A stretch of 64,000 nucleotides of DNA from Candidatus Omnitrophota bacterium (GTDB lineage Bacteria; Omnitrophota; Gorgyraeia; Tantalellales; Tantalellaceae), in NCBI GenBank assembly GCA_043813915.1, contig JBDRKO010000012.1, positions 37,457 through 101,456 on the forward strand. The letters run 5' to 3'. How positions within the stretch are numbered: the stretch's first letter is position 1; each line of letters starts with the position of its first letter. Positions 6,101 through 52,388 of this stretch are shown here, one piece after another. Below the pieces are notes generated by a model. That model was not told where the DNA came from. It did no database searches and saw only the letters and a program-made list of their open reading frames with translations. Made by a program: the position numbers and the translations under genes.

Positions 6101-9100
6101 GGAAAACGTGCGGAAAGATTTTTGTATCAACTCGGGTTCAACGATATCTGTTTTTCATGGTTTGAAACTCTTTCGCAGGAAGACAAGGCTAAAAGCCGTT
6201 TCATGGGGATCTCGGCATATAAGGCACAGGGGCTGGTTAACAGGGTAAAGGGAATGATCGGAGGAACAAGAAAGACAATATCTAAGCCTAAGCAGATGAA
6301 ACTATTCCCGCAAGCCCCCGAACAGCTCAAACTGTTCCCGGAAGTCAGTTCTACCTCAGGTGAAAATATCGCGGAACTAGAAAAAGCAAGAAAGAAAGCG
6401 GTAAGAATAAAGAGAAAATTAAAGAAAAAAAAGATCACGGACAAACAACTGAGCTTGTTCCAGAGGGAGAAGGGCCCAGAGAATACCGGTTTGGGCGAAG
6501 ACATGCTAAAAAAGACGCTAGAAGAACAAGGGGTAGATATAAACCGTGTATCGGAATTTCTTGCAGACTTTTCAAAAAACATAAAAGAGGAAAAGAAAAA
6601 TACATTTTTAATACAACTCGCCGATTGTTTTAGGGAAAGCAAGAAAACGAGGCTTGGCACAAAATTAGAAATAATGGAACCATATTTGTCCGATGTTATG
6701 GATAGCCTTCAAATTAAAATGGACATGGCAAACTTCCATTTTACAATTAATCATGGGACAACCAGTGTTGGATATATGGCGGAGAGTGTAAACATTAAGA
6801 ATGAGTATCATGATTTCACCATATACCTAATTGAAGAAGAAATTGACAAAACATATACCGTGAACCTTCTGGTTGATATAGATAAATGTCTCGCCACGCA
6901 ACCACGTCTTGCGGATGCGATAATGAAATTATGTGATGATAGAGGTACTACGATAGGCATTGCGAAACAAGCTGCTAATAATAAAAAAGGGACAGAAGGC
7001 AGGATTAACGGCATAGCGACACGATCAAAGGACGGCGAAAGGCAACTTATCGTATTGCCGCTTTATGATGTGAACGGAGAAAAAATAGGATACGAAAAGC
7101 CGGCAGGATATGCTTACGACGCGGATGTTCTGATCGACGGACGAAGAGTTACCCGTTTAGAAGCGATTTTGAGCCATGAGATAGCTTATTTATTTTTAAG
7201 AAGAACGCAAAAAAGTCAAAAATGGATATTGAAGGTAGACCAAAAAAGAATAAAAAAATTCACAGAGAAACACTCCGAAATAGAATGGGACATTAAAAGA
7301 TACGAAGAAAATATGGAAGAGGGGTTATTTGAACTGGTCTTCGAGATATATGGGATGAGGGCAGAAAGGATCAATGCGGAGTTTGATTTTCGGAGTTTAT
7401 CTTTGGAAGAAAAAGAAACTGTCCTCAAAAAAACATTCGTATCAGCTGAAAGTAGTTTTAACGTGCACGAATTTTTCGCGGATACTTTGGCGGCCTATTG
7501 GCTGGTGCCGGAGTTTGTTAAAGAAAAGGACCGGATCATGTTCGACCTTTTTGAGGCGATAGGCGTATGGAAAGATATTGAGAAGGGAGCGCGAACAGAC
7601 GACGAAAATAATGTAACGGATCCCCCCGGCCGGATAGGGAAATATTACACGGAAATAATCGCCGATGATGAACCGGGAGAAAACAGGTGGATAGTAAAAG
7701 CGATGCGTCACGGCGCATCTAAAGAGGCGGCTATCGATCTCGGCAGAACGTTCAGGGCCCCGCCTGTTGACGATGAGGTTAAGACGGAAATAAGAGATGC
7801 TGTTGACTCCAGAGATGCATCCAGGAAAACCGCGTATAAAGAACTTGTCAAAGAGATCTTAGAACAATTTCCCCAAAAAACCGTTCTTTACATATATAAA
7901 AACCTTTATCGGGACCTTTTCGGTTTTAACGATGTATCAAAAAAAATGATGGCTTTATATCGGGAGCTTTATGATGATAAGAAAACCCGGCCGGTCAGTC
8001 TGTTCCACGAGATATGCGAGTATCTTGGCACATTGAAGGTGATAGGGATAAGGGCCCGGGGAGACAAATTATTTGTGCGGATCAAAGGCAGAGAAACAGA
8101 AGTAGATGTTAGACGGGCGCGAAAAAGCCTGAAAGAAGACGGAGAAGACTGGATCAATTGGACGGAACAGGAGATCAATAAACCGGAAAACCGGCATTAT
8201 CTATTGAGGATACTGCAGAGGGAAATTTTCGGAGAAAAAGATGAGCTATTAACGAAAAAAATAAAAGACCTTGGGGAGCGCGGGTATAGGCGTTCCGCTG
8301 AAACGGATACGAAGAAAGCGGGAATGGCTACGCTAGACCAAATGATCCGGGAACTAGCCAGGGACATGGATATAACGGGCATGGAAAATGAGATAAAAGT
8401 ATTTTATGAAAAGTATATCAGGCTGGCAATGCGTGTACCGGTTGGAGGGCAAATATTGCTGAGCAGTATTAGAGCCGAACATATAGCGGATATGTTCTAT
8501 TTAAAAAAAGCATATCAATTCGATCTGTTCGAACTTCTGGAAGGGAAGCGCGAGACAAAATGGGTAAAAAGGGACGGGGCCGTCACGGATGAATATGTGT
8601 TCTATAACCGAAATGACGGGACATATGTTAATAAAGTAAGCGAGGCCGGGAAAAAGACATTTTTAGGAAAAGCCACCGATGGACGTTTTGGCCTAGAGGA
8701 CCGTGCCCATGACGGCGGAAGGAACATAGGCAATTTTAGGATAAAGACATTCTCTTTAAATAAATGGTTCCAAAAGACCGAGGGAGAGATGTCCTTAAAT
8801 ATAGACCGCGGTAAAGATACGAACGATCCGTATGCGTTATGTCGTTATTATGAAACTATTGGAGCACATGTTGATTGGCGGCTACTTAGCGGGAGCATGC
8901 TAATAACGGGTGGTTTGGATGCGGGCATATCAACAAAGAAAGAAACCGAAAGGATAGAAGGCCTCGAGAAATACGTGAGAAACGTCTGGAGCCAGAGAAA
9001 ACGCGACAGGTATTTCAGATTGACAAAAGATATAGAAACGGCAAGATTAGCCGAAGCTAATCAGGCGTTTACGGACGCGCATATGGATGTGGATATAGAT

Positions 9101-12100
9101 TCTTTGCGGAAGATCCAGCCGGAAGAGGTCGCGGAATTCATACAACATTATGATGGTGCAACACGAGAATTGGAAAAAGACATGGCGTTGAATGATGAGG
9201 TTAAAGCGAGACTGGGATCATTCTGCAGGAAATATTTAGAGATAAAAGAAGAATTCATCCGATGCGGATATGCTCCGGAAGATGAATACATGGTCAAATG
9301 TTTTAACGGGGAGATAATAGCGGATATGTTCTATTTAGCGGAAAAAGACGGGTTCAATGTTTTGGATCTTCGCAGCAAAAACAGGACTAAATGGATGAAA
9401 GAAGAAAATGGCATAACGATCCATTATGAATTCGAAAAGGAAAAAGACAGATCCGTATCAATGTATGAAGTTGATCAGAATAAGCCAAGGCGTAAAATAG
9501 CTTGTTTCAATGAGTTTTCTTATTATTTGGACGATCTAGATGCGGATGGGGGGAAAAATCTTGGAAATTTTCTTACAAAAACCGTTTATTTTCTATTGTG
9601 GGCAAACAAAAAGCAGAAAAAAACAGAGTTTGTGATCAGCTTTGAAATAAGCGGCGCACTAAAAGAGTACTATATGACTACCGGAGCGCGGATAGGAAGC
9701 AGGACTGATTTCGGCGATGAGATAGCACGCGTGGATCTGGTCGGAGGATTAAGAGCCGGGATATTAACTCCGCAGCAGGCAAAAAGGATTAAAGATCCAA
9801 ATGGCCGTCATAGACTTAATCCCTTTATATGGCGCGTATGGAGCCAGAGAAAGCTGGACAGGTATTTCAGATTGACTAAGGCCATAGAGACAGAGAAACT
9901 CGTCGAAGCTAACCGGGCCTTTACGGAAGCGCGCGCGGCGACGGATATCGAGGATCTGCAGAAGATCCAGCCGGAAGAAGTCGCGGAATTTATAAAAACT
10001 TATTTAACGGAAAAAGTTAAAGAGGAAACGGACACAATTGTCTTCGCGCATGGTACGACAAAAGATGCTATTAGCAATCTTGATGCGGGTTTTTTGAAAA
10101 AAAAGCTGTCTTTTCAGGGAGGAAGGGTAGAAGATATTTTGCGCTTGATCGGGACACATATAGAGGGAAAACTGTATGGAGATGAAAAAGAAATGCTTAT
10201 TTACTGCTTAAGTGAACTGTTAGTCAATACTCATTTCAGGGGAAAAGAGACTATGGGTACCGAGGCGTATCTTTACGTGCCGGAGAAGCGGAGAGACCCT
10301 GGGGTATTAAAATTTGTTGTTTCACAGAAAGGCATTAGAGAGGAAAGATATTGGGGTATACTTAAAAAGACCGCTGCAAAATTTTCCCAAAAAGGCAATA
10401 AAGGGTATGAATATTTTATGGATGTCATACAACGTAAGAAAGATAGAACTAGGGTGGGGGATGGAAGCGCGCTTTTCTGGGTTGGCAGACTTATGGAAAG
10501 AACAAATGTTTACCTTGAATATACACGGAAAGGGGAGGAGATAATAACCAATATCTGGATCGACCTTGGCCCGCTTTTGGAGGGCGACGCTCATGACGAA
10601 CAAGGGAAAGAAACGGTTGTTTTTGCGCATGGGATGACAGAGGGCGATATTAATGTTTTTAAAAAGATCGAAGAAGAAAAAGAGCCTGTCCGCATGCCCG
10701 GGGCCGGACATGTTATTAACTTTGTACGTGCCGAGACCGGGAAAAACATTTGGCGGTCGAAATCGTATGCTTTTGGGGAGTGTCTGGGAGAATTGTTGAA
10801 CAATGCGTGCATGCGTGGAAATGGCGTGGTATCCAGCCACGCGTATGTGTATGAAGCCGGAGAACATAAAGAATATATATTGAGATTCAATATTTCACAA
10901 AAGGGTCTCAATGAAGAAGTCTATTGGCATCTACTTAAGAGAACTGCCAAAAATTTTGCGCAACAAGATAAGAAAGGACCCGCGTATCTTCAGGATACAG
11001 AAAAGCGTGAGCGGGAGGAGATAACAATAGGCGGCGGATCTGGTTTTAAGTTTGTCGGGAGACTTATGGAAGAAACAGATGTCTATCTTGAATATACGCG
11101 AAATGGCGAGAATATCGAGACTGATATATGGGTCAGACTCGAACCATTTTTAGGAGAGACGTTCGATGCCGGACAAAAAGAAACGACAATACGCGACTTG
11201 GCCGGAGAAATGATCATTAAAAAAATAACAAAGGCAAAGATCCAACAGGTCGACAGAAAAAGCCAGGAGCTAAGAACCCGACTTAAAAATTCGTGGGCGG
11301 TAATGCCGGAAGAGTCGCGAAAGACGCCGATAGATATAGTGATAGACCTGTCATTAGTGTCAAAAGAGGACCTTCAGGAAAACATCGAAACCTGGGCGTA
11401 TCTTTTCTTGCTACTGTTCAAACAGGAGAATGTGAATTTTGTTTTCGAAAAAGGCTCTGAAATTCTTAAAGGCGTACGTCTTTCCGAAGAATTGGCTAAC
11501 GATGTCGCTCAGGCGCCTGAGGTAGAAGATGTTTTGAGAGATCTGAAAGCGGCGATAAAAAAGAATGCTAAATTTTCTGATTTTCAATTGGAAGATGAAA
11601 AATTTGATAAGATCCTCGATAAACGTGTTAAGACTGTCCGTAGTGAACCGATTCTCCTCGAAAACCGGGAAAAACCGGAAAAACCGGTTGAGATAACGGT
11701 CACATCTCAAGAATGTTTAATATGGGCAAGTAAAAACGATAAACTTCTCGAGGAGAACCAATATCCCATTGCCATGGAGGGGTTTACGCTTAATGAAGCC
11801 GGAGGCGTTCCGCTTAGGAACTTTGAAGCCGCGGTGATGATAGGTTTTGCCAAGGCCTTGCTTGTTCTTGCCAAAAGAAGAGATATACGGAAAAAACCCG
11901 GAGAAGAGAGAGAACTTCCGCTGCTCAAGAAAAGACTTCTCAACCAGCTTAATGGGTTGTATAGCCTTTGTATAGACGATATTATCAGATTTACAGAGGA
12001 TACACTTGATTCTATGGTACATACTTCACCCATCGTAAGGCTGAATTTAGCAATTGATCTTGCGTTGTCGAAGATAACAAGAATGCCGGTGGGAGGCCTT

Positions 12101-12145
12101 ATTGAGCTTCACAGGGCAATACAATCTGCCCTTCAGGCGGCATAA
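158..12145 (+). CDS. Giant repetitive protein of unknown function, at least 3995 aa. The reading frame stays open, with no stop, from nt 2 to 157, so the gene may begin upstream of the window.
   Basis: It is an uninterrupted 12-kb ORF with coding-like composition. Internal protein repeats include RGSGFREIPGRK..ARLTDDRGIVWEEY (twice), SLFHEI.EYL..HYLLRILQRE (twice) and two roughly 150-aa tandem modules near the C-terminus. The N-terminus has no signal peptide. Confidence 0.75.
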   Translation: MIKENQSPSQVKQHMEEILQTKITKEVNEASDSTRFLPAQKLGKVLACIFKLGGKIDKATSKAFKLFSLELEPEGDSNTAHGEIIRSCFMSLPELTMQNPPVDPPVYKSQKGQRMKALSNIPGEAAAGILRLLKDAEPYKVLGRTIIYKTNEGYTAFKFLKKEQTLQPNGSYAEKREDSGKLVYESEIFDFLNTLKHEKRALQGDYPTAVKIGGERMFCIKTETVPGALSGTPGIDKTGGFCTFMAYETEDPDYFVYLHEEENDKKAEKAAEKNIHDLFFLAKYGLIHPDIIELFHNITAVPRDDEGKYLGMVDISRPIINRRGTGRLHGWEKEVTYPNMRISGAADFAELVNINDLISLDNGHSKYLRKNLYKMQEEKRVQHILAHFFSNYFLSWVLVEGKRLKQHGKIIKQDWKDADKVKKLGDRAKNIYIKAYKTFINSNGEDLEAIVDWDMLARQMLFYLGGAYKDYDIEDIPANIHGMQGLRISHGDGWGFIHEDIIKEATEKNDKERVLDEYFDNAVSSADREFPEGVLIFKPGFEELLGKEENKQLAGILGKLYKEYAKGWRLDGKHEDLGPINGPFPITELIKANYIYTMAMIGRYAYGSRLEKNPESQDPGVSVRGSGFREIPGRKTEYNDRGQIARLTDDRGIVWEEYFYKEEGVFEAVDLYNPVTGKRIRCEPDKAPQKRPEYAKILIKIEEKNGQFRQVGDMNINADSKALFCVANIQLPETGEEKTRGKGIGKTVLRWIDMQAYRQSKPLEIEQAVNPVMAHIAGTLYEVSRLKITVGDKSYSDIHEEEELRNLLFERTYLLSLPGDFTYLTVGKGSDEVSIERVYNSRTGQLVKDNKLPPGYDYKIDKEKKRLIITDPKGNPARLEYFPGITFVGLPDVGKIVKTQEMENDQRVKGQGSGDRVKGPGFREIPGRKIEYNDRGQIARLTDDRGIVWEEYQYRDDGTIDYVSLHNPVTGRTIKCEYKGYPGGIPGNQKWVISREVEENGPVPIGKLIIQEGQDAATGQRYIRQSNLSIRDKDDRNKGISKTVKIWFALRAYRESKVLKFAAIWSPLSAKIDIGVCDISSLRISKEKSARSGGKLIVFSDGEDLKRQLLEQEFYFQGPTGLVRISVEPGTQEIVTTTNWPKEYTREIKDGELVVNDENGERISIRYEDSFYFEGLPDVKKIVGVQDVEESQGSSPSASLGTRESPAAAGSPLAEKSQSSGSNGPGKTEIERINIEELRELITGIHEYIIRPGSPYALESGLCLSTNVVLYRTIKNIRTIKNEIIKNGGTRGRVAADMPEPKAEICRKQIGAEEHWFLLVDSDFVVDIFPNYTGRRTGLHKTVIVMTKKEAEELNGWYKNAEQSKMNNHTLENIRRMESEMAKTGADIALREWLDTQIDRRMRVEKIKDEKDTAQMMKKTNTVETDPEKVFIGNLKGLMTGFYGTFVGERSIYRAFERGDKGIDLSLLRLFAKISGKVPELNVELCYSDNAETKYWYLLVNSRIIVSMYPPEEFNSEWIVMTEEDAALESKLYDRKNRNKITGTTVFERARKRWDNPAMEEYEPMVDELIEKWLKYRVNNIGSPAKEKESIRNGHSNPRDTSENFRNIGKVYDDNMDIAVTQTSEKEAQLEVTAYNARNQKEETFHLNASIHGPPTKEQKQRITDTAKKEHKSLIATILSLFPDDIPLYILTDPLKEDLFGFASIKNKFIALHRTIKDDPVALFHEIGEYLIRVPSLVSRVSRLQLELDEKNRLTVTINGERQEPVVLSEATLKFIEDEKMEGEWGPNWQTSQHYLLRILQREVFGKADETLTEKIIDGQMTARMEKEGSRAEPWGPIKVNGLSIYAKEVIKPSEIRKTLDIWFDGKEERYFLREQWEKAINAAIKRARPAFLVKIESQEGELMGISYCHKGLFPFEEGEADIYIGDFSEIPGKYRGKGLGEVIMAKGMERMVSAHRDGIDREEIYVGHPAEHDEEEYADKGKRAERFLYQLGFNDICFSWFETLSQEDKAKSRFMGISAYKAQGLVNRVKGMIGGTRKTISKPKQMKLFPQAPEQLKLFPEVSSTSGENIAELEKARKKAVRIKRKLKKKKITDKQLSLFQREKGPENTGLGEDMLKKTLEEQGVDINRVSEFLADFSKNIKEEKKNTFLIQLADCFRESKKTRLGTKLEIMEPYLSDVMDSLQIKMDMANFHFTINHGTTSVGYMAESVNIKNEYHDFTIYLIEEEIDKTYTVNLLVDIDKCLATQPRLADAIMKLCDDRGTTIGIAKQAANNKKGTEGRINGIATRSKDGERQLIVLPLYDVNGEKIGYEKPAGYAYDADVLIDGRRVTRLEAILSHEIAYLFLRRTQKSQKWILKVDQKRIKKFTEKHSEIEWDIKRYEENMEEGLFELVFEIYGMRAERINAEFDFRSLSLEEKETVLKKTFVSAESSFNVHEFFADTLAAYWLVPEFVKEKDRIMFDLFEAIGVWKDIEKGARTDDENNVTDPPGRIGKYYTEIIADDEPGENRWIVKAMRHGASKEAAIDLGRTFRAPPVDDEVKTEIRDAVDSRDASRKTAYKELVKEILEQFPQKTVLYIYKNLYRDLFGFNDVSKKMMALYRELYDDKKTRPVSLFHEICEYLGTLKVIGIRARGDKLFVRIKGRETEVDVRRARKSLKEDGEDWINWTEQEINKPENRHYLLRILQREIFGEKDELLTKKIKDLGERGYRRSAETDTKKAGMATLDQMIRELARDMDITGMENEIKVFYEKYIRLAMRVPVGGQILLSSIRAEHIADMFYLKKAYQFDLFELLEGKRETKWVKRDGAVTDEYVFYNRNDGTYVNKVSEAGKKTFLGKATDGRFGLEDRAHDGGRNIGNFRIKTFSLNKWFQKTEGEMSLNIDRGKDTNDPYALCRYYETIGAHVDWRLLSGSMLITGGLDAGISTKKETERIEGLEKYVRNVWSQRKRDRYFRLTKDIETARLAEANQAFTDAHMDVDIDSLRKIQPEEVAEFIQHYDGATRELEKDMALNDEVKARLGSFCRKYLEIKEEFIRCGYAPEDEYMVKCFNGEIIADMFYLAEKDGFNVLDLRSKNRTKWMKEENGITIHYEFEKEKDRSVSMYEVDQNKPRRKIACFNEFSYYLDDLDADGGKNLGNFLTKTVYFLLWANKKQKKTEFVISFEISGALKEYYMTTGARIGSRTDFGDEIARVDLVGGLRAGILTPQQAKRIKDPNGRHRLNPFIWRVWSQRKLDRYFRLTKAIETEKLVEANRAFTEARAATDIEDLQKIQPEEVAEFIKTYLTEKVKEETDTIVFAHGTTKDAISNLDAGFLKKKLSFQGGRVEDILRLIGTHIEGKLYGDEKEMLIYCLSELLVNTHFRGKETMGTEAYLYVPEKRRDPGVLKFVVSQKGIREERYWGILKKTAAKFSQKGNKGYEYFMDVIQRKKDRTRVGDGSALFWVGRLMERTNVYLEYTRKGEEIITNIWIDLGPLLEGDAHDEQGKETVVFAHGMTEGDINVFKKIEEEKEPVRMPGAGHVINFVRAETGKNIWRSKSYAFGECLGELLNNACMRGNGVVSSHAYVYEAGEHKEYILRFNISQKGLNEEVYWHLLKRTAKNFAQQDKKGPAYLQDTEKREREEITIGGGSGFKFVGRLMEETDVYLEYTRNGENIETDIWVRLEPFLGETFDAGQKETTIRDLAGEMIIKKITKAKIQQVDRKSQELRTRLKNSWAVMPEESRKTPIDIVIDLSLVSKEDLQENIETWAYLFLLLFKQENVNFVFEKGSEILKGVRLSEELANDVAQAPEVEDVLRDLKAAIKKNAKFSDFQLEDEKFDKILDKRVKTVRSEPILLENREKPEKPVEITVTSQECLIWASKNDKLLEENQYPIAMEGFTLNEAGGVPLRNFEAAVMIGFAKALLVLAKRRDIRKKPGEERELPLLKKRLLNQLNGLYSLCIDDIIRFTEDTLDSMVHTSPIVRLNLAIDLALSKITRMPVGGLIELHRAIQSALQAA

Positions 12146-12501
12146 AAGAGACAGAAACAGGAGCCGGGGGTTAAACCCCGGCTGCAATTGTGGATAGTGT
12201 GCAAAGCGGATATCTCATCAATGTGTCATTCCGAGCGGAGTGATGAGCGATAGCGAGAGAACGGAGTCGAGGGATCTGATAAGAGAAAATATCTCTCAGC
12301 TCGTTCGTCGTTCTACTTCTTGCTCGCTTGAGATGGCGGTGTGGTTTATGGTTTAGAGCCTACGGTCGTATATATATTGACTTTCTACTATTAATTGTTA
12401 AAATAATGTTTAATATGGGCGTCCTTATGAACAAAGCAATGGTCCATGGCCGTTTGCTGTAAGGTGTTTTTGTTTTTATCGAAAAATGGGGGGAAAGATA
12501 T

Positions 12502-12999
12502 ATGGAACAGACACTCATTCTCATTAAACCTGACGGATTAAAAAAATCTTTGACAGGCAATATCCTGACCAGGCTTTCCGAGACCAAGCTGGATATCGTG
12601 GCCGCGAAAATGGTCCGGGTTTCCAGGGAACTCGCGGAAGAGCACTATAGAGCTTTAAAAAATGAACCTTTCTTTGAAGAGCTCGTTAAATACATAATGG
12701 GCGATTATCACAAAAAAAAGGTAATGGCGCTGATCTATGCCGGAGAAGATTCCATAAGAAAAGTCCGGGATATCTGCGGGAAAACGAACCCGGAAGAGGC
12801 GGACTCCGTGTCAATACGGGGGGCATACGGACGGATCACCACAAAAGGCGTATACGAGAACGTTATACACGCTTCCGCGAATCCCGATGACGCCGAAAGA
12901 GAGATCAAATTATGGTTCGATCCGGATGAGATACTGGAAGACGTGTATCCGTTCGAGATCACTGAAGAGACCGTAAAACGAAAAAAATGGACGGTTTAA
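12502..12999 (+). CDS. ndk: Nucleoside diphosphate kinase.
   Basis: The N-terminus LILIKPDG and the motif NVIHASANPDDAEREIKLWF match Ndk. A GGGG RBS lies upstream. Confidence 0.85.
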   Translation: MEQTLILIKPDGLKKSLTGNILTRLSETKLDIVAAKMVRVSRELAEEHYRALKNEPFFEELVKYIMGDYHKKKVMALIYAGEDSIRKVRDICGKTNPEEADSVSIRGAYGRITTKGVYENVIHASANPDDAEREIKLWFDPDEILEDVYPFEITEETVKRKKWTV

Positions 13000-13000
13000 A

Positions 13001-15374: not shown

Positions 15375-16043
15375 ATGCCCCGAAAACCAGAACAAAAAAA
15401 GATCATTAAAAAGAATATCCTGATAACGGCCGGACCGACAATAGAGCCCATAGACCCGGTGAGGTATCTTACCAACCGTTCTTCGGGTACAATGGGGTAT
15501 AAGATAGCCGAAAAAATGATCGCGGCAGGCCACGAAGTATGTATTATATCAGGCCCTGTCAGCGTTTCTCCGCCTTCCGGAGCCGAGATCATATCCGTGG
15601 AGACGGCGGATGAGATGAACAAAGAAGTGATCGGGCGGATAGACGCGTGCGATTGTATTATCATGGCCGCGGCGGTTTGTGATTTCAGGCCCGCGAGAAA
15701 GGAAAACCGGAAGATAAAAGAACTGGGAAAATATACGCTCGAGATGGTGCGTAATCCCGACATATTAAAAGGCGTGAGAGACCGGAATATCATCAAGATC
15801 GGGTTCGCGCTCGAGACGGATGACCCGATAAAGAACGGCAAAAAAAAACTTGCGGAAAAAGAACTGGATGCCATCATCGTGAATTCGAAGACGGACAAGA
15901 ACGATCCTTTCGGCAAAGCGGAGGTAAAAAGGGAATACATTCTGATCAAACCGGGTGACGACGTGAGAACGATAAAGGACGTGACCAAGGACGAGATGGC
16001 CGAAATGATCAAAAAAGAGGTCGAGAAGATGCTATGGGTCTGA
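15375..16043 (+). CDS. coaB: Phosphopantothenate-cysteine ligase (CoaB half).
   Basis: It carries the motifs ITAGPTIEPIDPVRYLTNRSSGTMG. It starts 1 nt after the coaC stop, in another frame. Confidence 0.8.
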   Translation: MPRKPEQKKIIKKNILITAGPTIEPIDPVRYLTNRSSGTMGYKIAEKMIAAGHEVCIISGPVSVSPPSGAEIISVETADEMNKEVIGRIDACDCIIMAAAVCDFRPARKENRKIKELGKYTLEMVRNPDILKGVRDRNIIKIGFALETDDPIKNGKKKLAEKELDAIIVNSKTDKNDPFGKAEVKREYILIKPGDDVRTIKDVTKDEMAEMIKKEVEKMLWV

Positions 16044-16489
16044 AGAATTGGGCTAGCAAAGGGTTCACCATAAGCGAGCTGCTGGTAGTTATGATCATAG
16101 TTTTCGCAGCGGGATTGGTCCTGCTGCCTGCCGTTAAATACAGCAGCAGCAGGATGGATAAGACCATATGCACGAATAATCTCAGAGAGATGGGTCTTGC
16201 GCTTTACATATACGCCGAGGAACACGGAGGAGAATTTCCCCCGTCGATCAAAGCTTTGTATGAACAGGGGTATCTATCGGATGAACGGATAACGGATTGT
16301 CCCGCAAACAAGGATAAGGGAACGCCTGAACAGCCAGATTACATATATACGGCGGGATTATCCGCCAAAAGCTCCTCTAACGGCGTTTTGCTCAAAGATA
16401 GAGCTAAGAACCATTCCTCGGAGTGGAAAAATGTCATGAGAGTCGACGGGACCATATCAGCAGGGGAAGAGAACAATAAAGCGGATTGA
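16034..16489 (+). CDS. Prepilin-type N-terminal cleavage/methylation domain protein (type IV pilin or pseudopilin-like).
   Basis: The leader MGLKNWASKG is followed by FTISELLVVMIIV, which is the G|FTxxE motif followed by a hydrophobic helix. Confidence 0.7.
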   Translation: MGLKNWASKGFTISELLVVMIIVFAAGLVLLPAVKYSSSRMDKTICTNNLREMGLALYIYAEEHGGEFPPSIKALYEQGYLSDERITDCPANKDKGTPEQPDYIYTAGLSAKSSSNGVLLKDRAKNHSSEWKNVMRVDGTISAGEENNKAD

Positions 16490-16592
16490 CAATTTCCTCG
16501 TATTGTGATAGCTTAACTGGTTATTACAGAATAGCTTATAGTCCGCAAGGCGGGTATTTTAACGATACGGGCGCGAACTTTAAGACAAAAAG

Positions 16593-16666
16593 GGCGCGGT
16601 GGCCGAGAAGCTAGGCAGCGGTCTGCAAAACCGCGTACACCGGTGCGAATCCGGTCCGCGCCTCCA
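16593..16666 (+). tRNA. tRNA-Cys (anticodon GCA).
   Basis: It folds as a cloverleaf by hand. The acceptor is GGCGCGG/CCGCGCC, the anticodon stem is GCGGT-CTGCAAA-ACCGC, the T-arm is ACCGG-TGCGAAT-CCGGT, and the 3' CCA is encoded. Confidence 0.8.
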
Positions 16667-17502
16667 TTCTTCTTCGCCCTTCGATAATGGGGGAAAACTG
16701 GTAGGGCTTCGAAGAAACAAGTTCTTGGTATGAGGTAAGCGAAGAAGAATGCCTCTGCGAAGCCTCACCGGAGGGGCTCTAGAGGAAGGCGAAGCAGGGC
16801 AAACCTTCGCCCTTCGATAATGGGGCGTGATGGTACGAAGTTTCTTCGAAGCTGTACCGTTGTTTACTTTTTGAACAGCGAAGAAGAAGGGCTTCGAAGA
16901 AACAAGTTCTTGGTATGAGGTAAGCGAAGAAGAATGCCTCTGCGAAGCCTCACCGGAGGGGCTCTAGAGGAAGGCGAAGCAGGGCAGATACGGTATAGAT
17001 AATAGTAGTATTAGGTTACATGTATATTGATATTGTAACATAGCGGGCGGTTAGCTCAGATGGTTAGAGCGCCACGTTGACATCGTGGAGGTCACCGGTT
17101 CGATCCCAGTACCGCCCACCATTCTTCTTCGCCCTTCGATAATGGTGCGCATTGGTACGAAGTTTCTTCGAAGCTGTACCGTTGTTTACTTTTTGAACAG
17201 CGAAGAAGAAGGGCTTCGAAGAAACAAGTTCTTGGTATGAGGTAAGCGAAGAAGAATGCCTCTGCGAAGCCTCACCGGAGGTTCTTTTGAGAAAGGCGAA
17301 GCAGGGCAAACCTTCGCCCTTCGATAATGGTGCGCATTGGTACGAAGTTTCTTCGAAGCTGTACCGTTGTTTACTTTTTGAACAGCGAAGAAGAAGGGCT
17401 ACGAAGAAACAAGTTCTTGGTATGAGGTAAGCGAAGAAGAATGCCTCTGCGAAGCCTCACCGGAGGTTCTTTTGAGAAAGGCGAAGCAGGGCAGACCTTC
17501 GC
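16667..17502. repeat. Tandem array of about 4 copies of a roughly 190-bp unit; the first copy is shorter. The unit reads ttcttcttcgcccttcgataatgg...ggtacgaagtttcttcgaagctgtacc...gcctctgcgaagcctcaccggagg...aggcgaagcagggca. The array is interrupted by tRNA-Val.
   Basis: The copies can be aligned directly, at more than 90% identity. Each tRNA 3' CCA is followed immediately by the unit start TTCTTCTTCGCCC. Confidence 0.85.
17045..17121 (+). tRNA. tRNA-Val (anticodon GAC).
   Basis: The acceptor is GGGCGGT/ACCGCCC, the D-arm is GCTC..GAGC, the anticodon stem-loop is CCACG-TTGACAT-CGTGG, and the CCA is encoded. The T-stem has one mismatch. Confidence 0.85.
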
Positions 17503-17709
17503 CTGTGCTGGATGCCTATATTTCATGTAGCTACGGCGGACTAGGCGACATTAAGAAAAGGCGAAGGTTGTCCTCCGTAGTCGAGTGATATCTAAATAGA
17601 TTGACGAAGGAGGACCATTAGAGCATTGGAGCATTAAAAGGGTTATATAGTGGGTTCCATTGCGGTCCATTGTTCGAATGCTCGAATGTTCAAGATATAC
17701 AGGAAAAAC

Positions 17710-19467
17710 ATGAAAAAAACCGACGAAACATTACAGAAACTCCGGCATAGCACGGCGCATATCATGGCTGACGCGGTCTCGAAACTGTATCCGGGAGTCA
17801 AATTAGGGATAGGACCTTCGATCGAGGACGGGTTCTATTATGATTTTGATTTTTCGGGATGCGTAAAAGATGCGGACGACAGAAAAGCCGGGTTTTTGAC
17901 GCCGGAAGATCTCCCGTTAATAGAACAGGAAATGAGGGAGATCATAAAAAAGGATATACCTTTTGAGAGAAAGGTCATCAAGAAAGAAGAAGCTCTAAGC
18001 CATTTCGGACTGAAAAAAGAAGTTTATAAAGAAGAGGTCATCAAGGAGCTCGAAGAACAGGAAGTATCATTATATCGTCACGGAGAGTTCGAGGATCTTT
18101 GTAAAGGACCTCATATCAAGAGCACCGGCGAGGTCAAAGCTTTTAAACTGTTATCTTTGGCCGGCGCGTATTGGAGGGGCGACGAGAAGAATCCTATGCT
18201 GCAGCGCATATACGGGACAGCGTTCGGGAATAAAAAAGACCTTGAAAGTTTTCTGGAGATGATAGAGGAAGCGAAAAAAAGGGACCATAGAAAATTAGGC
18301 AAAGAACTTGATCTTTTCAGCTTTAACGACCTTATCGGAGCGGGACTCGTGCTGTATCATCCAAAAGGCGCCATGCTCAGGCAGATAATCGCGGATCATA
18401 TCACGAAAGAGCACCTGAAAAGAGGATATGAACTTATTTCCAGTCCGCACATATTGAAAAGCGATATATGGGTACGTTCGGGGCATTATGACTACTACAA
18501 AGAGAATATGTATATATTCGAGAGCGAAAAACAGGAATTCGCCGTCAAGCCCATGAACTGTCCGGGGCATATACTGGTATACGGATCGAGGATGAGGAGT
18601 TACAAAGAATTTCCCATAAAATATTTCGAGCTGGGAAATGTATACCGTCATGAAAAATCCGGTGTTCTTCATGGCCTTTTAAGGGTGAGAGGATTTACGC
18701 AGGATGACGCCCATATTTTTTGCCTAAGAGATCAGGTCGAGGAAGAAGTGGGCAAAGTGATAGACTTTGTCGAGGAAACGCTTAATGTGTTCGGGTTCAA
18801 AGAATTCGAGATCGAGCTTAGCACCCGTCCCGCGAAATACATAGGAGAGGAAAAGGATTGGGAAGAGGCCACGGATGCTTTAAAAAAGGCTTTGGCCGTT
18901 AAAGGTCTGCCGTACGAGATAAACGAAGGGGACGGAGCGTTTTACGGGCCCAAGATAGATATAAAACTGAAAGACGCCTTGGGCAGGTCATGGCAATGTG
19001 CTACTATTCAGTGTGATTTCGCTCTTCCCGAAAGGTTCGATCTGACATATGTGGATTCTGACGGCAAGAACAAACGGCCCATTATGCTACACAGGGTCAT
19101 CCTGGGCAGTCTGGAAAGGTTCATCGGGGCGCTTATAGAACATTACGGAGGGGCTCTCCCGATGTGGCTCGCGCCGGTCCAGGTAAAAGTGATACCTATA
19201 GCCGAGGCGCATAAGGAATATGGCGAAAAAATAAAGCAAAAGCTGTTAGAGAAAGGCATAAGAGCCGAGATCGATATACGTAACGAAAAAATGCAAAAAA
19301 AGATAAGGGACGCGGAAATGGAAAAGGTCCCGTATATGGCGATATTGGGCGGACGGGAAGCCGCCGAAGATCAAGTCTCTGTGCGCAGCAGGAAAGACGG
19401 AGATCAGGGAGCTAAACCCGTGCAGGAATTTATTGACATCTTAATAAAAGAGAACGAAAATAGATAA
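17710..19467 (+). CDS. thrS: Threonyl-tRNA synthetase. The probable start is MKKTDETLQ; the N-terminal TGS domain appears to be absent.
   Basis: It has the second additional domain (HSTAHIMADAV) and class II catalytic motifs. Confidence 0.9.
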   Translation: MKKTDETLQKLRHSTAHIMADAVSKLYPGVKLGIGPSIEDGFYYDFDFSGCVKDADDRKAGFLTPEDLPLIEQEMREIIKKDIPFERKVIKKEEALSHFGLKKEVYKEEVIKELEEQEVSLYRHGEFEDLCKGPHIKSTGEVKAFKLLSLAGAYWRGDEKNPMLQRIYGTAFGNKKDLESFLEMIEEAKKRDHRKLGKELDLFSFNDLIGAGLVLYHPKGAMLRQIIADHITKEHLKRGYELISSPHILKSDIWVRSGHYDYYKENMYIFESEKQEFAVKPMNCPGHILVYGSRMRSYKEFPIKYFELGNVYRHEKSGVLHGLLRVRGFTQDDAHIFCLRDQVEEEVGKVIDFVEETLNVFGFKEFEIELSTRPAKYIGEEKDWEEATDALKKALAVKGLPYEINEGDGAFYGPKIDIKLKDALGRSWQCATIQCDFALPERFDLTYVDSDGKNKRPIMLHRVILGSLERFIGALIEHYGGALPMWLAPVQVKVIPIAEAHKEYGEKIKQKLLEKGIRAEIDIRNEKMQKKIRDAEMEKVPYMAILGGREAAEDQVSVRSRKDGDQGAKPVQEFIDILIKENENR

Positions 19468-48173: not shown

Positions 48174-49256
48174 TTATTCTTCTTTCTTCTCTTTTTCGTA
48201 GCTAAATGCCTTAAATCGTTCATGTAAATAATCCGGCCTTAGATGTCTATATCTGCGTGTCATTGATGCGCTCTTATGGCCCAAGACCTCCTGAATGGCT
48301 GTTTCTGGTATATCCCTCATATGAGCAATAGAGCAAAAAGTGTGTCTCAGTGAGTGCACATGAACCTCTTTGATCCTTGCCTCCTGACAGCATTCTTTTA
48401 CTTTTTCCAACACCCTACGATTATTAATTACATGTCCTTTCGTTGTCTGAAACAACAGTTCTCCCTCTGTCAGCATTTGGTCTTCTATAATATTTTTTAT
48501 TTCATCGGCAATAGGGGCATATCTGTTCTCTTTATTTTTCGGGTGCCACTCTTTGCCGTCTACTTCTTTCCCGCGGATATACAATAGCGATCTTGCTAAA
48601 TCTACATCATCCTTAGTTAAATGAAGCACTTCGTTGACTCTCATACCTGTAAATAGTATCGTTGCTACGATTTCAAAATAAGGCACTTTATAATCTTTTT
48701 CTTTCATCTTTTTCAGAAGCAGAATAGCTTCTTCTTCTGTTAGATTTTCGACATGTGGTGTTGCCACTTTCTTTGGGGATGTAGCTACTGTGGGATTATT
48801 ATTAGTCCACTTGCGCGCTATAGCATATCTGAACAGGTTAGAAATTACCATCCTCTCCATGTTCCAGGTTCTCCTGGCTATCCCTCTTTCTGTCCGGGAA
48901 TAAAGGTACTCTTCTATCATGCCTGTGTTAATGTCGCTAATATTGCTCACCTTTTTTATTTCAGCAAACTCCTGAAACATCTTTATTATGCCCTGGTACC
49001 TTCTCTTAGATTCTCTTGTAGTAAGATCTGTATCAAACTTACTTCGCAGATAGCTTCTAACTACCATCTTAAAATCCGCTCCCTGCACATATCCGTCTTT
49101 TCTTTTTTGCGCTCTCTGCAACTGATTATCTTTTGCCATACGCTCTGCTTCAGATTTATTGTATGATAAGAATTTCCATACAGCTTTACCAAATTCAGTA
49201 GGACGTATGTAATATCCCTTACATCCTGCCCTGGTAACAATCTTTAATTTCTTCAT
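48174..49256 (-). CDS. Tyrosine-type site-specific recombinase (integrase).
   Basis: Its C-terminal catalytic motifs are HSLRHTF and GH...MTRRYRHL with the catalytic Tyr. The N-terminus is a SAM-like domain. Confidence 0.9.
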   Translation of the reverse strand: MKKLKIVTRAGCKGYYIRPTEFGKAVWKFLSYNKSEAERMAKDNQLQRAQKRKDGYVQGADFKMVVRSYLRSKFDTDLTTRESKRRYQGIIKMFQEFAEIKKVSNISDINTGMIEEYLYSRTERGIARRTWNMERMVISNLFRYAIARKWTNNNPTVATSPKKVATPHVENLTEEEAILLLKKMKEKDYKVPYFEIVATILFTGMRVNEVLHLTKDDVDLARSLLYIRGKEVDGKEWHPKNKENRYAPIADEIKNIIEDQMLTEGELLFQTTKGHVINNRRVLEKVKECCQEARIKEVHVHSLRHTFCSIAHMRDIPETAIQEVLGHKSASMTRRYRHLRPDYLHERFKAFSYEKEKKEE

Positions 49257-52313: not shown

Positions 52314-52388
52314 TGGCTGGGATGCCTGGACTCGAACCAGAAACGGATGATCCAGAGTCATCTGTGTTACCAATTACACCACATCCCA
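52314..52388 (-). tRNA. tRNA-Gln (anticodon CTG).
   Basis: The reverse complement folds as TGGGATG/CATCCCA acceptor, D-arm GTGT..ACAC, anticodon stem GATGA-CTCTGGA-TCATC, and T-arm TCTGG-TTCGAGT-CCAGG, with discriminator G and CCA. Confidence 0.85.

Follow-up and report, generated by a model that had tools for sequence, protein, structure and literature searches.

The 3′ external transcribed spacer of the Escherichia coli glyW-cysT-leuZ operon (3′ETS-leuZ) acts by pairing with Hfq-dependent small RNAs, and stable terminal helices, such as 5′ stem-loops of the ompA type and hairpins of the repetitive extragenic palindromic (REP) type, protect RNAs from end-dependent nucleases. Closer in architecture to the locus described here is the tyrT region of E. 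coli K-12, in which tyrT is followed by one RtT element, then by tyrV, and then by 3.1 tandem copies of a 178-bp repeat, each with an RtT. As a control we searched this region with the RtT model RF00391, which gave four matches of 133–137 bits. The K-12 repeats are annotated as the small RNA RttR and the protamine-like protein Tpr, and a recent preprint still calls the mode of action of rtT unknown. Here we analyze a 64-kb stretch of DNA from a Candidatus Omnitrophota bacterium (assembly GCA_043813915.1, contig JBDRKO010000012.1, positions 37,457–101,456; hereafter, the window), in which a transfer RNA (tRNA) gene for cysteine and one for valine are each followed immediately by copies of a 185-nucleotide unit, upstream of the threonine–tRNA ligase gene thrS. 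The locus is an independent, sequence-unrelated occurrence of RtT-type architecture in a distant uncultured phylum. Our preferred reading, which we hold tentatively and place a little short of an even chance, is that the unit is a cis-acting, recombination-prone spacer element of the tRNA-Cys–tRNA-Val–thrS operon; we do not think that it is a dispersed or trans-acting small-RNA family.

A 185-nucleotide unit behind two different tRNAs

The locus lies on the plus strand of the window and runs in the order promoter, tRNA-Cys, Cys1, Cys2, spacer, tRNA-Val, Val1, Val2, CTTCGCC, a 206-nucleotide leader, and thrS, where Cys1, Cys2, Val1 and Val2 are copies of the unit. ARAGORN and Rfam both identified tRNA-Cys(GCA) at 16593–16666 (RF00005, 56.1 bits) and tRNA-Val(GAC) at 17045–17121 (61.6 bits). 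Both genes encode their CCA, with U73 as the discriminator of tRNA-Cys and A73 as that of tRNA-Val. An original prediction, made by a model from the letters alone, held that the same sequence begins directly after the CCA of each, and the 24 nucleotides that follow, counted from the first base, are indeed identical (TTCTTCTTCGCCCTTCGATAATGG). Behind tRNA-Cys, a TTCTT linker leads into Cys1, a truncated unit of 133 nucleotides (16667–16804 including the linker; found by alignment and by blastn and nhmmer), which is followed by the full 185-nucleotide Cys2 (16805–16989; motif positions and alignment). An AT-rich spacer of 55 nucleotides (16990–17044) separates the Cys array from tRNA-Val, behind which a second TTCTT linker leads into the full unit Val1 (17122–17311 including the linker; Tandem Repeats Finder, alignment and fold) and then Val2 (17312–17496). 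The Val array (Val2 and its end together spanning 17312–17503) closes with CTTCGCC at 17497–17503, the 7-nucleotide beginning of another copy.

Unit positions are counted here from the unit start, CTTCGCCCTTCGATAATGG, which in the whole 64 kb occurs only at 16672, 16805, 17127 and 17312 (0.02 occurrences expected by chance). Two further unit segments, also searched in the window, gave the same four-copy picture, and for 17127–17503 Tandem Repeats Finder returned a period of 185, 2.0 copies and 98% identity. The predicted arrangement of about four tandem copies of roughly 190 bp, two per tRNA, was thus right in its copy number, whereas the period is 185 and Cys1 is truncated; the nested inverted repeats that had been named are all present in the sequence. 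The loss of 52 nucleotides from Cys1, the 7-nucleotide copy start at the end of the Val array and the 55-nucleotide spacer had been missed.

Alignment of the copies showed that Cys1 is without an internal segment of 52 nucleotides that bears the 5′ arm of a long hairpin. Between the Cys-type and Val-type units there are 11 differences, clustered at unit positions 20–26, 156–166 and 183–185, and identity is 100% outside two small patches. The units carry 7-bp terminal inverted repeats (CTTCGCC...GGCGAAG) and end in GGCGAAGCAGGGCAAAC, without NCCA, and the pentamer CGAAG occurs 25 times in 837 nucleotides. In the alignment, the two copies inside each array have array-specific variants in common, which implies either that each array was duplicated alone after the Cys and Val trailers had diverged or that each was homogenized internally.

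The first of the small patches is hypervariable. At unit positions 18–26 it reads GGTGCGCAT in Val1 (17144–17152) and Val2 (17329–17337), GGGGCGTGA in Cys2 (16822–16830) and GGGGGAAAAC in Cys1 (16689–16698), and four versions are found in six copies, within about 150 flanking nucleotides that are identical. A second variable patch lies at unit positions 156–166. Patch 1 could equally have arisen by single template-switch events in quasi-palindromic DNA or by diversifying selection. A diversity-generating retroelement with template and variable repeats was considered and rejected: it would confine the changes to adenines of one copy and place the variable repeat inside a gene, whereas the 11 differences involve every base, in either copy, and the units do not code.

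Four other public data sets contain the same organism: ENA ERZ27247128, NCBI GCA_018817765.1, and the Logan runs SRR10568895 and SRR6514274. Independent short-read contigs L001 and L002 contain the same Cys1 sequence and reproduce the Cys1–Cys2 junction, and contig L024 reproduces the 3′ half of Val2 together with the leader. Every contig with the upstream gene breaks off within the Cys array, its sequence identical to that of the window, and the contigs that encode an identical threonyl-tRNA synthetase (ThrRS) start inside the Val array. These matches indicate that the repeats are real and that they break short-read assemblies, with the practical consequence that every such assembly of this organism is interrupted at this locus. 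A strain variant, L025, departs from the window in only two respects across the last unit and the leader: five substitutions inside one 9-nucleotide patch (L025:8–16, reading AGGGCTCGC) and a 123-nucleotide deletion in the thrS leader between CGAAGcAGG and CGAAGgAGG.

This deletion is one of three that we observed, all of them between short direct repeats; the others are the 52 nucleotides missing from Cys1 and 260 nucleotides missing from a related locus. The last of these emerged from comparing L008:5613–5867 with L010:1638–2152, from two contigs of Candidatus Aadella gelida with identical ThrRS, and it removes tRNA-Val(GAC) from L008 exactly between two direct trailer repeats. The difference is probably a population polymorphism, a collapse in assembly being less likely.

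The units had been described as not coding, and this was borne out: 185 is not divisible by 3, stop codons fall in all frames, and the recurrent open reading frames (ORFs) are only 21–51 amino acids long, are without ribosome-binding sites and are disrupted by the Cys1 deletion. Also correct was the statement that the locus is not an array of clustered regularly interspaced short palindromic repeats (CRISPR). Such an array needs repeats of about 25–40 nucleotides with unique spacers, and the 185-nucleotide units abut directly with no unique spacers between them, so we rejected this candidate.

Searches for known families and for other copies returned little beyond the tRNAs. Scanning 15500–18500 on both strands with Rfam 15 (cmscan, E ≤ 10) recovered only the two tRNAs and chance matches, and Rfam searches at a permissive threshold on the loci of five relatives recovered only tRNAs. 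Neither ARAGORN nor the Rfam tRNA model RF00005 found a tRNA-like end inside the units. No further or diverged copy of the unit was found by blastn-short and nhmmer in the window, in all fetched loci, with eight related species among them, or in four further contigs of the same organism, and the tRNA-Gln gene at 52314–52388 has no unit trailer. Exact scans with the 19-nucleotide unit start gave no match in IMG/VR, one in the GTDB genomes and two in the JGI metagenomes, the three matches all lying in unrelated DNA and attributable to chance; blastn against phage and plasmid collections matched the tRNA-Val gene only and left the array unmatched. Copies unlinked to tRNAs, which the original prediction had named as evidence against itself, were therefore absent from the window, the relatives' loci and the collections searched. 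With no homologous units beyond the four near-identical copies, there is no covariation within the window's own family.

Trailers in related genomes and predicted structure

In three of seven related genomes, one trailer has been copied behind different tRNAs. The genome of Ca. Aadella gelida (L010) has the same sequence of about 50–90 nucleotides, starting at the first position after CCA (+1), behind tRNA-Cys, tRNA-Val and tRNA-Leu; in L011 a trailer of about 110 nucleotides is common to tRNA-Leu and tRNA-Val; and in L015 (as in L016) a 170-nucleotide element follows all three tRNAs. Over the first 60 nucleotides after CCA, identity between different tRNAs of one genome was 0.95 in L011, 0.82–0.93 in L010, 0.82–0.88 in L015 and 0.72 in the window, compared to a background of about 0.52 between genomes. 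No relationship could be detected among the four shared trailers, each genome having its own sequence, and between the window and the Aadella trailers only a short AAGGCGAAG core and a GTCCNCC hairpin module ahead of thrS could be aligned. The copied block begins exactly at +1 in four lineages with four different sequences, and the tRNAs with shared trailers have almost no homology beyond CCA.

The L015 element of about 170 nucleotides (L015:2147–2325, 2414–2600 and 2761–2950; also in L016) is homologous to a single-copy element that lies between tRNA-Val and thrS in L017 (2831–3000) and L018. Of 49 predicted pairs in this L015/L017 element, 11 had compensatory changes, some of which distinguish paralogues that stand behind different tRNAs in a single genome, which indicates that at least one trailer family has been selected for RNA structure at every position that it occupies. 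One hairpin of the element has a UUCG cap and leads into a U/C-rich run, and another sequesters a Shine–Dalgarno-like sequence. It has no Rfam match and may be an undescribed thrS leader or attenuator motif. In another relative, L012, positions 170–220 hold a 3′ fragment of tRNA-Leu (GAGTCCCTCCTTGCCCACCA) without its 5′ half, with a perfect 11-bp hairpin (GTAAATTTGGC/GCCAAATTTAC) at +1.

Folding a single unit, a check that the original prediction had proposed, gave a strongly structured result: Val1 was predicted to fold with −73.2 kcal/mol (z = −5.05 relative to shuffled sequences). When the spacers were folded whole by partition function, the 11 nucleotides next to CCA (UUCUUCUUCGC) paired, with a probability of about 1.0 in both arrays, with a GCGAAGAAGAA motif that lies further along the array and has a copy in every unit. 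The predicted helix at +1 encloses a 14-bp hairpin (GUUUCUUCGAAGCU/GGGCUUCGAAGAAAC), and a second predicted domain ends in a GGCGAAG/CTTCGCC hairpin that bridges neighboring units. Of the 11 sites at which the Cys-type unit departs from the Val-type unit, nine are in predicted loops, one turns a G-U into an A-U pair, and one gains a pair. In addition, unit position 20, which is G in the Cys type and U in the Val type, can pair with N73 of the preceding tRNA (U73 or A73) to form a helix N73-CCAUU/AAUGG-N; as covariation at a single position, this is no more than suggestive.

The surrounding genes place the arrays within an operon. Upstream of tRNA-Cys, at 16486–16514, lies a candidate promoter for the tRNA cluster, with a −35 element TTGACA (16486–16491), a 17-nucleotide spacer and a TGn-extended −10 element TGATAGCTT (16506–16514). 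Its TTGAC and TGATA..TTA are invariant in an alignment of the window with seven related species, and we infer its function from the consensus and from this conservation in eight species. On the plus strand no terminator-like site was found between 16000 and 18000 (the minus strand had only weak 5-bp sites), and intrinsic terminators after the tRNAs were rejected, there being no GC-rich hairpin with a U-tract on the plus strand. A plus-strand promoter scan of the AT-rich spacer (16990–17044) made no call; this spacer may contain a weak internal promoter, and relatives have a promoter-like TTGAAx..TATAAT ahead of tRNA-Val.

In two relatives the start of thrS is so close to tRNA-Val (12 nucleotides in L013 and 40 nucleotides in L022) that thrS must there be read from the tRNA transcript. 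Judging from sequence, the arrays of the window almost certainly lie inside a tRNA–thrS primary transcript, in which the Cys array would serve as an internal spacer, and the RNA for thrS would begin with the Val array. Co-transcription of the units with the tRNAs, which the original prediction had raised as a condition, is thus very likely, given the conserved promoter, the lack of a plus-strand terminator and the 12-nucleotide gap in a relative.

The Val array is followed by the thrS leader (17504–17709; inverted repeats and fold), which includes a hairpin closed by CCTTCGCC/GGCGAAGG, a conserved AAGAAAAGGCGAAGG with a GTCCTCC/GGAGGAC module at 17549–17620, and a long helix GAGCATTGGAGCATT.../...GAATGCTCGAATGTTC at 17618–17695, just upstream of thrS, in which the second strand is a partial complement of the first. 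Aligned with the corresponding leader of Ca. Aadella gelida, it has one compensatory pair. The GAGCATTGGAGCATT motif is common to a distant relative, L020 (1195–1280 and 1380–1470), where it also stands behind two tRNAs. The thrS gene itself (17710–19467) encodes a threonine–tRNA ligase of 585 amino acids, whose homologues place the organism in Candidatus Omnitrophota, with Ca. Aadella gelida nearest (79% identity). Here as in every relative, infC, rpmI and rplT come next. The gene order ndk-yicC-gmk-rpoZ-coaBC-pilin-like-[tRNA cluster]-thrS-infC-rpmI-rplT-trkHA-pheST was kept in all relatives that we fetched, with the cluster consisting of tRNA-Cys, (tRNA-Leu) and tRNA-Val. The tRNA-Leu(TAA) gene that is in the cluster of all seven relatives examined is absent from 16593–17710 and from the whole window.

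Possible roles and origins of the unit

The original prediction had proposed that ribonuclease (RNase) P and RNase Z would release a defined RNA from each unit. This does not follow, because the units have no tRNA-like end and no NCCA terminus; for lack of such an end, RNase P could cut only at the 5′ end of tRNA-Val. That cut would produce one spacer RNA of about 380 nucleotides from the Cys side and would leave the Val array as the 5′ portion of the RNA that carries thrS. On the 3′ side, RNase Z is not a likely candidate, since both tRNAs encode CCA, which is an anti-determinant of RNase Z in the bacteria studied so far.

Under the reading that we prefer, a cis-acting spacer element, one 3′ trailer would have been copied behind a second, different tRNA, and each copy would then have been tandemly duplicated. 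Local recombination or slippage at the short CTTCGCC and CGAAG repeats may have done the copying, and the deletions and copy variants among strains suggest that such recombination is ongoing. A helix that starts exactly at the tRNA 3′ processing site might insulate the folding of the tRNA and mark the site for processing. After the cut, the +1 helix would shield the downstream RNA, which on the Val side is the thrS-infC-rpmI-rplT message, from nucleases by keeping its 5′ end base-paired. In ten loci, 9 of 23 trailers open with an uninterrupted helix of at least 7 bp at +1 or +2, compared to 9.8% of control offsets in the same sequences, although this count includes non-independent copies within genomes and comes down to about six independent families.

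That limit is one of several points that weigh against a cis-acting role. Transcription, the sites of processing and an influence on thrS are predictions from sequence. The minus strand of the unit also folds well (z = −4.05), as is expected of any palindrome-rich DNA, so thermodynamics alone is no proof of a role as RNA. The fold of the unit is without cross-species covariation, the unit has no homologue outside the species, and the differences between paralogues stem from only a few mutational events. Cys1 has lost an arm of the main hairpin and L025 a part of the leader, which implies that much of the structure is dispensable, and L013, L017 and L022, in which no trailer is shared within the genome, manage without. 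Nor does a cis-acting role explain the hypervariability of the patch or the presence of two copies per tRNA.

The main rival is that the arrays are a functionless minisatellite. Unequal crossing-over, slippage or gene conversion would have copied the trailers among neighboring tRNA 3′ flanks and homogenized them, they would persist only because they do no harm in a transcribed spacer, and their hairpins would be a by-product of the CGAAG/CTTCG sub-repeats. The unit is species-specific, without a homologue anywhere we searched, the relatives use unrelated trailer sequences or none, and the 52-, 123- and 260-nucleotide deletions in Cys1, L025 and L008 speak of rapid turnover; both strands fold well, and even the E. 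coli analogue is still described as without a known function. Random recombination, however, predicts no boundary at exactly +1, which is where the copied block begins in four lineages, and the compensatory changes in L015 reflect selection on structure in at least one trailer family. The complete identity of the units outside the two small patches likewise fits a functionless repeat poorly. We consider this rival unlikely, if still a serious one. Clearly less probable is the idea that the locus makes trans-acting small RNAs, released by tRNA-processing and other nucleases, in which the 9-nucleotide patch serves as a guide or seed on a constant scaffold. Here, too, there is precedent: the analogous tyrT repeats of E. 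coli are annotated as releasing rtT RNA, and bacterial tRNA 3′ external spacers such as 3′ETS-leuZ can be small-RNA sponges. Four versions of patch 1 in six copies, within about 150 identical flanking nucleotides, and the concentration of substitutions in predicted loops are also what a variable guide on a fixed scaffold would produce. Yet single template-switch events in quasi-palindromic DNA would account equally well for clustered substitutions, the borders of the unit have no tRNA-like or other recognizable processing signal, no terminator is present, copies were found at one locus only, and there is no known target, a 9-nucleotide match not being searchable above chance. Of the predicted tRNA-linked small-RNA family, then, the processed RNA has its precedent in RttR, whereas a family is not supported, no further copy having been found in the window, the relatives or the collections searched. 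A stronger version, in which the units are scaffolded RNAs cut from a tRNA-driven transcript to form a guide-like or decoy array with the 9-nucleotide patch as specificity segment, is a long shot; if it were true, the species-specific trailers of the relatives would be fast-evolving versions of the same device.

Explanations at the level of DNA or protein fared worse still. The 7-bp terminal inverted repeats, CTTCGCC...GGCGAAG, would suit a non-autonomous element akin to a miniature inverted-repeat transposable element, and tRNA 3′ ends are classical integration sites, which would suit the scars of integrase insertion; L012 has its fragment of a tRNA-Leu 3′ end without a 5′ half, and the window itself has an integrase island at tRNA-Gln. 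A mobile origin is nevertheless very improbable, as the 64-kb window has no copy outside this locus, not even at that tRNA-Gln, phage, plasmid and viral records match only the tRNA-Val gene, no duplicated tRNA 3′ segment flanks the units, and neither a transposase nor an integrase is near the locus. It is hardly credible that the units encode small proteins, as tpr does in the E. coli tyrT repeats, or that they are protein-binding iterons at the DNA level. The recurrent short ORFs (one of 23 amino acids, MPLRSLTGG..., one of 32, M.R.GTKFLRS..., and an Arg-rich one of 29 on the minus strand) and the 25 occurrences of CGAAG in 837 nucleotides could be cited in favor, but the ORFs are without a Shine–Dalgarno sequence at the proper distance, the differences between copies in them are mostly non-synonymous, and the 32-amino-acid ORF is destroyed in Cys1. 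A role as a replication origin or in iteron binding was rejected, since GC skew makes no turn at 17 kb and there is no excess of DnaA boxes.

Two other features of the window were recorded in passing. Between 44000 and 52400 lies a block of low GC content (0.34–0.39) and reversed skew that abuts the 3′ end of tRNA-Gln(CTG) (52314–52388, minus strand) and contains a tyrosine integrase (48174–49256, minus strand; Pfam PF00589, 8e-27) and large ORFs without a Pfam match; it is probably an integrated mobile element. At about 7000–13000 (L001:1–6112), upstream of ndk, there is a very long ORF of more than 2000 amino acids with no Pfam match on record, which fits the giant genes reported for Omnitrophota.

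Comparison with known systems

The position of the locus upstream of an aminoacyl-tRNA synthetase gene recalls T-box leaders, as does the ability of a UGGN sequence to pair with the NCCA end of a tRNA: UGGG can pair with U73-CCA of tRNA-Cys and UGGU with A73-CCA of tRNA-Val, so that N tracks the discriminator. It differs in having no specifier or antiterminator architecture, and the tRNA concerned is the attached upstream one, not tRNA-Thr. With no match to RF00230 at E ≤ 10 and no terminator-like site on the plus strand, we rejected membership in the T-box family.

The role that we envisage for the +1 helix resembles that of ompA-type 5′ stem-loops, in which a stable helix likewise stands at the end of an RNA; the 5′ end here would come from tRNA processing, not from transcription initiation. 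In contrast to REP elements, which are dispersed in hundreds of copies, the unit was found at one locus only in the window and the other loci and contigs searched. Like 3′ETS-leuZ, which is co-transcribed with tRNAs, is freed by processing and belongs to an operon with Cys and Leu tRNAs, the spacers of the window would be parts of a tRNA transcript, but 3′ETS-leuZ is short, single-copy and non-tandem, and the unit has no known partner RNA.

The likeness to RtT is the closest of these. In both systems a non-coding structured unit of similar length (178 and 185 nucleotides) lies directly 3′ of tRNAs, on the same strand, in short tandem arrays; the layouts, tyrT-RtT-tyrV-RtT-RtT-RtT and Cys-U′-U-Val-U-U (where U is a unit and U′ the truncated one), are almost identical; and both arrays are recombination-prone. 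At its end, the RtT unit repeats the final ~19 nucleotides of tRNA-Tyr, CCA included (...CCTTCCCCCACCACCA), and forms an acceptor-like stem, and this mimic of a tRNA 3′ end explains both its processing and the boundaries of the repeat. The unit of the window, in contrast, lacks a mimic of this kind and begins directly at +1; moreover, RtT follows two copies of the same tRNA, whereas the tRNAs here are different (Cys and Val), as is the phylum. The RF00391 model had no match in the window up to E = 10 (its gathering score is 45 bits), and together with the missing mimic and the two different tRNAs, this led us to reject membership in the RtT family. The sense strand of E. coli RtT (L023:1205–1763) has GGGCGAAGCGC and the unit has AAGGCGAAGCAGGGC; the GGCGAAGC string that they have in common is probably a coincidence.

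RtT has been without a clear function for decades, and the window presents the same architecture, in unrelated sequence, in a distant uncultured phylum. Taken together with the trailers that begin at +1 in the relatives, this suggests a general pressure on the 3′ flanks of tRNAs in mixed tRNA–mRNA operons, for which processing, insulation and protection of mRNA 5′ ends are candidates; the alternative is that RtT is a curiosity of E. coli alone. The locus also offers a compact system in which to test how the thrS-infC-rpmI-rplT mRNA is matured from a tRNA precursor, in an arrangement that matches that of the tyrT repeats almost element by element.

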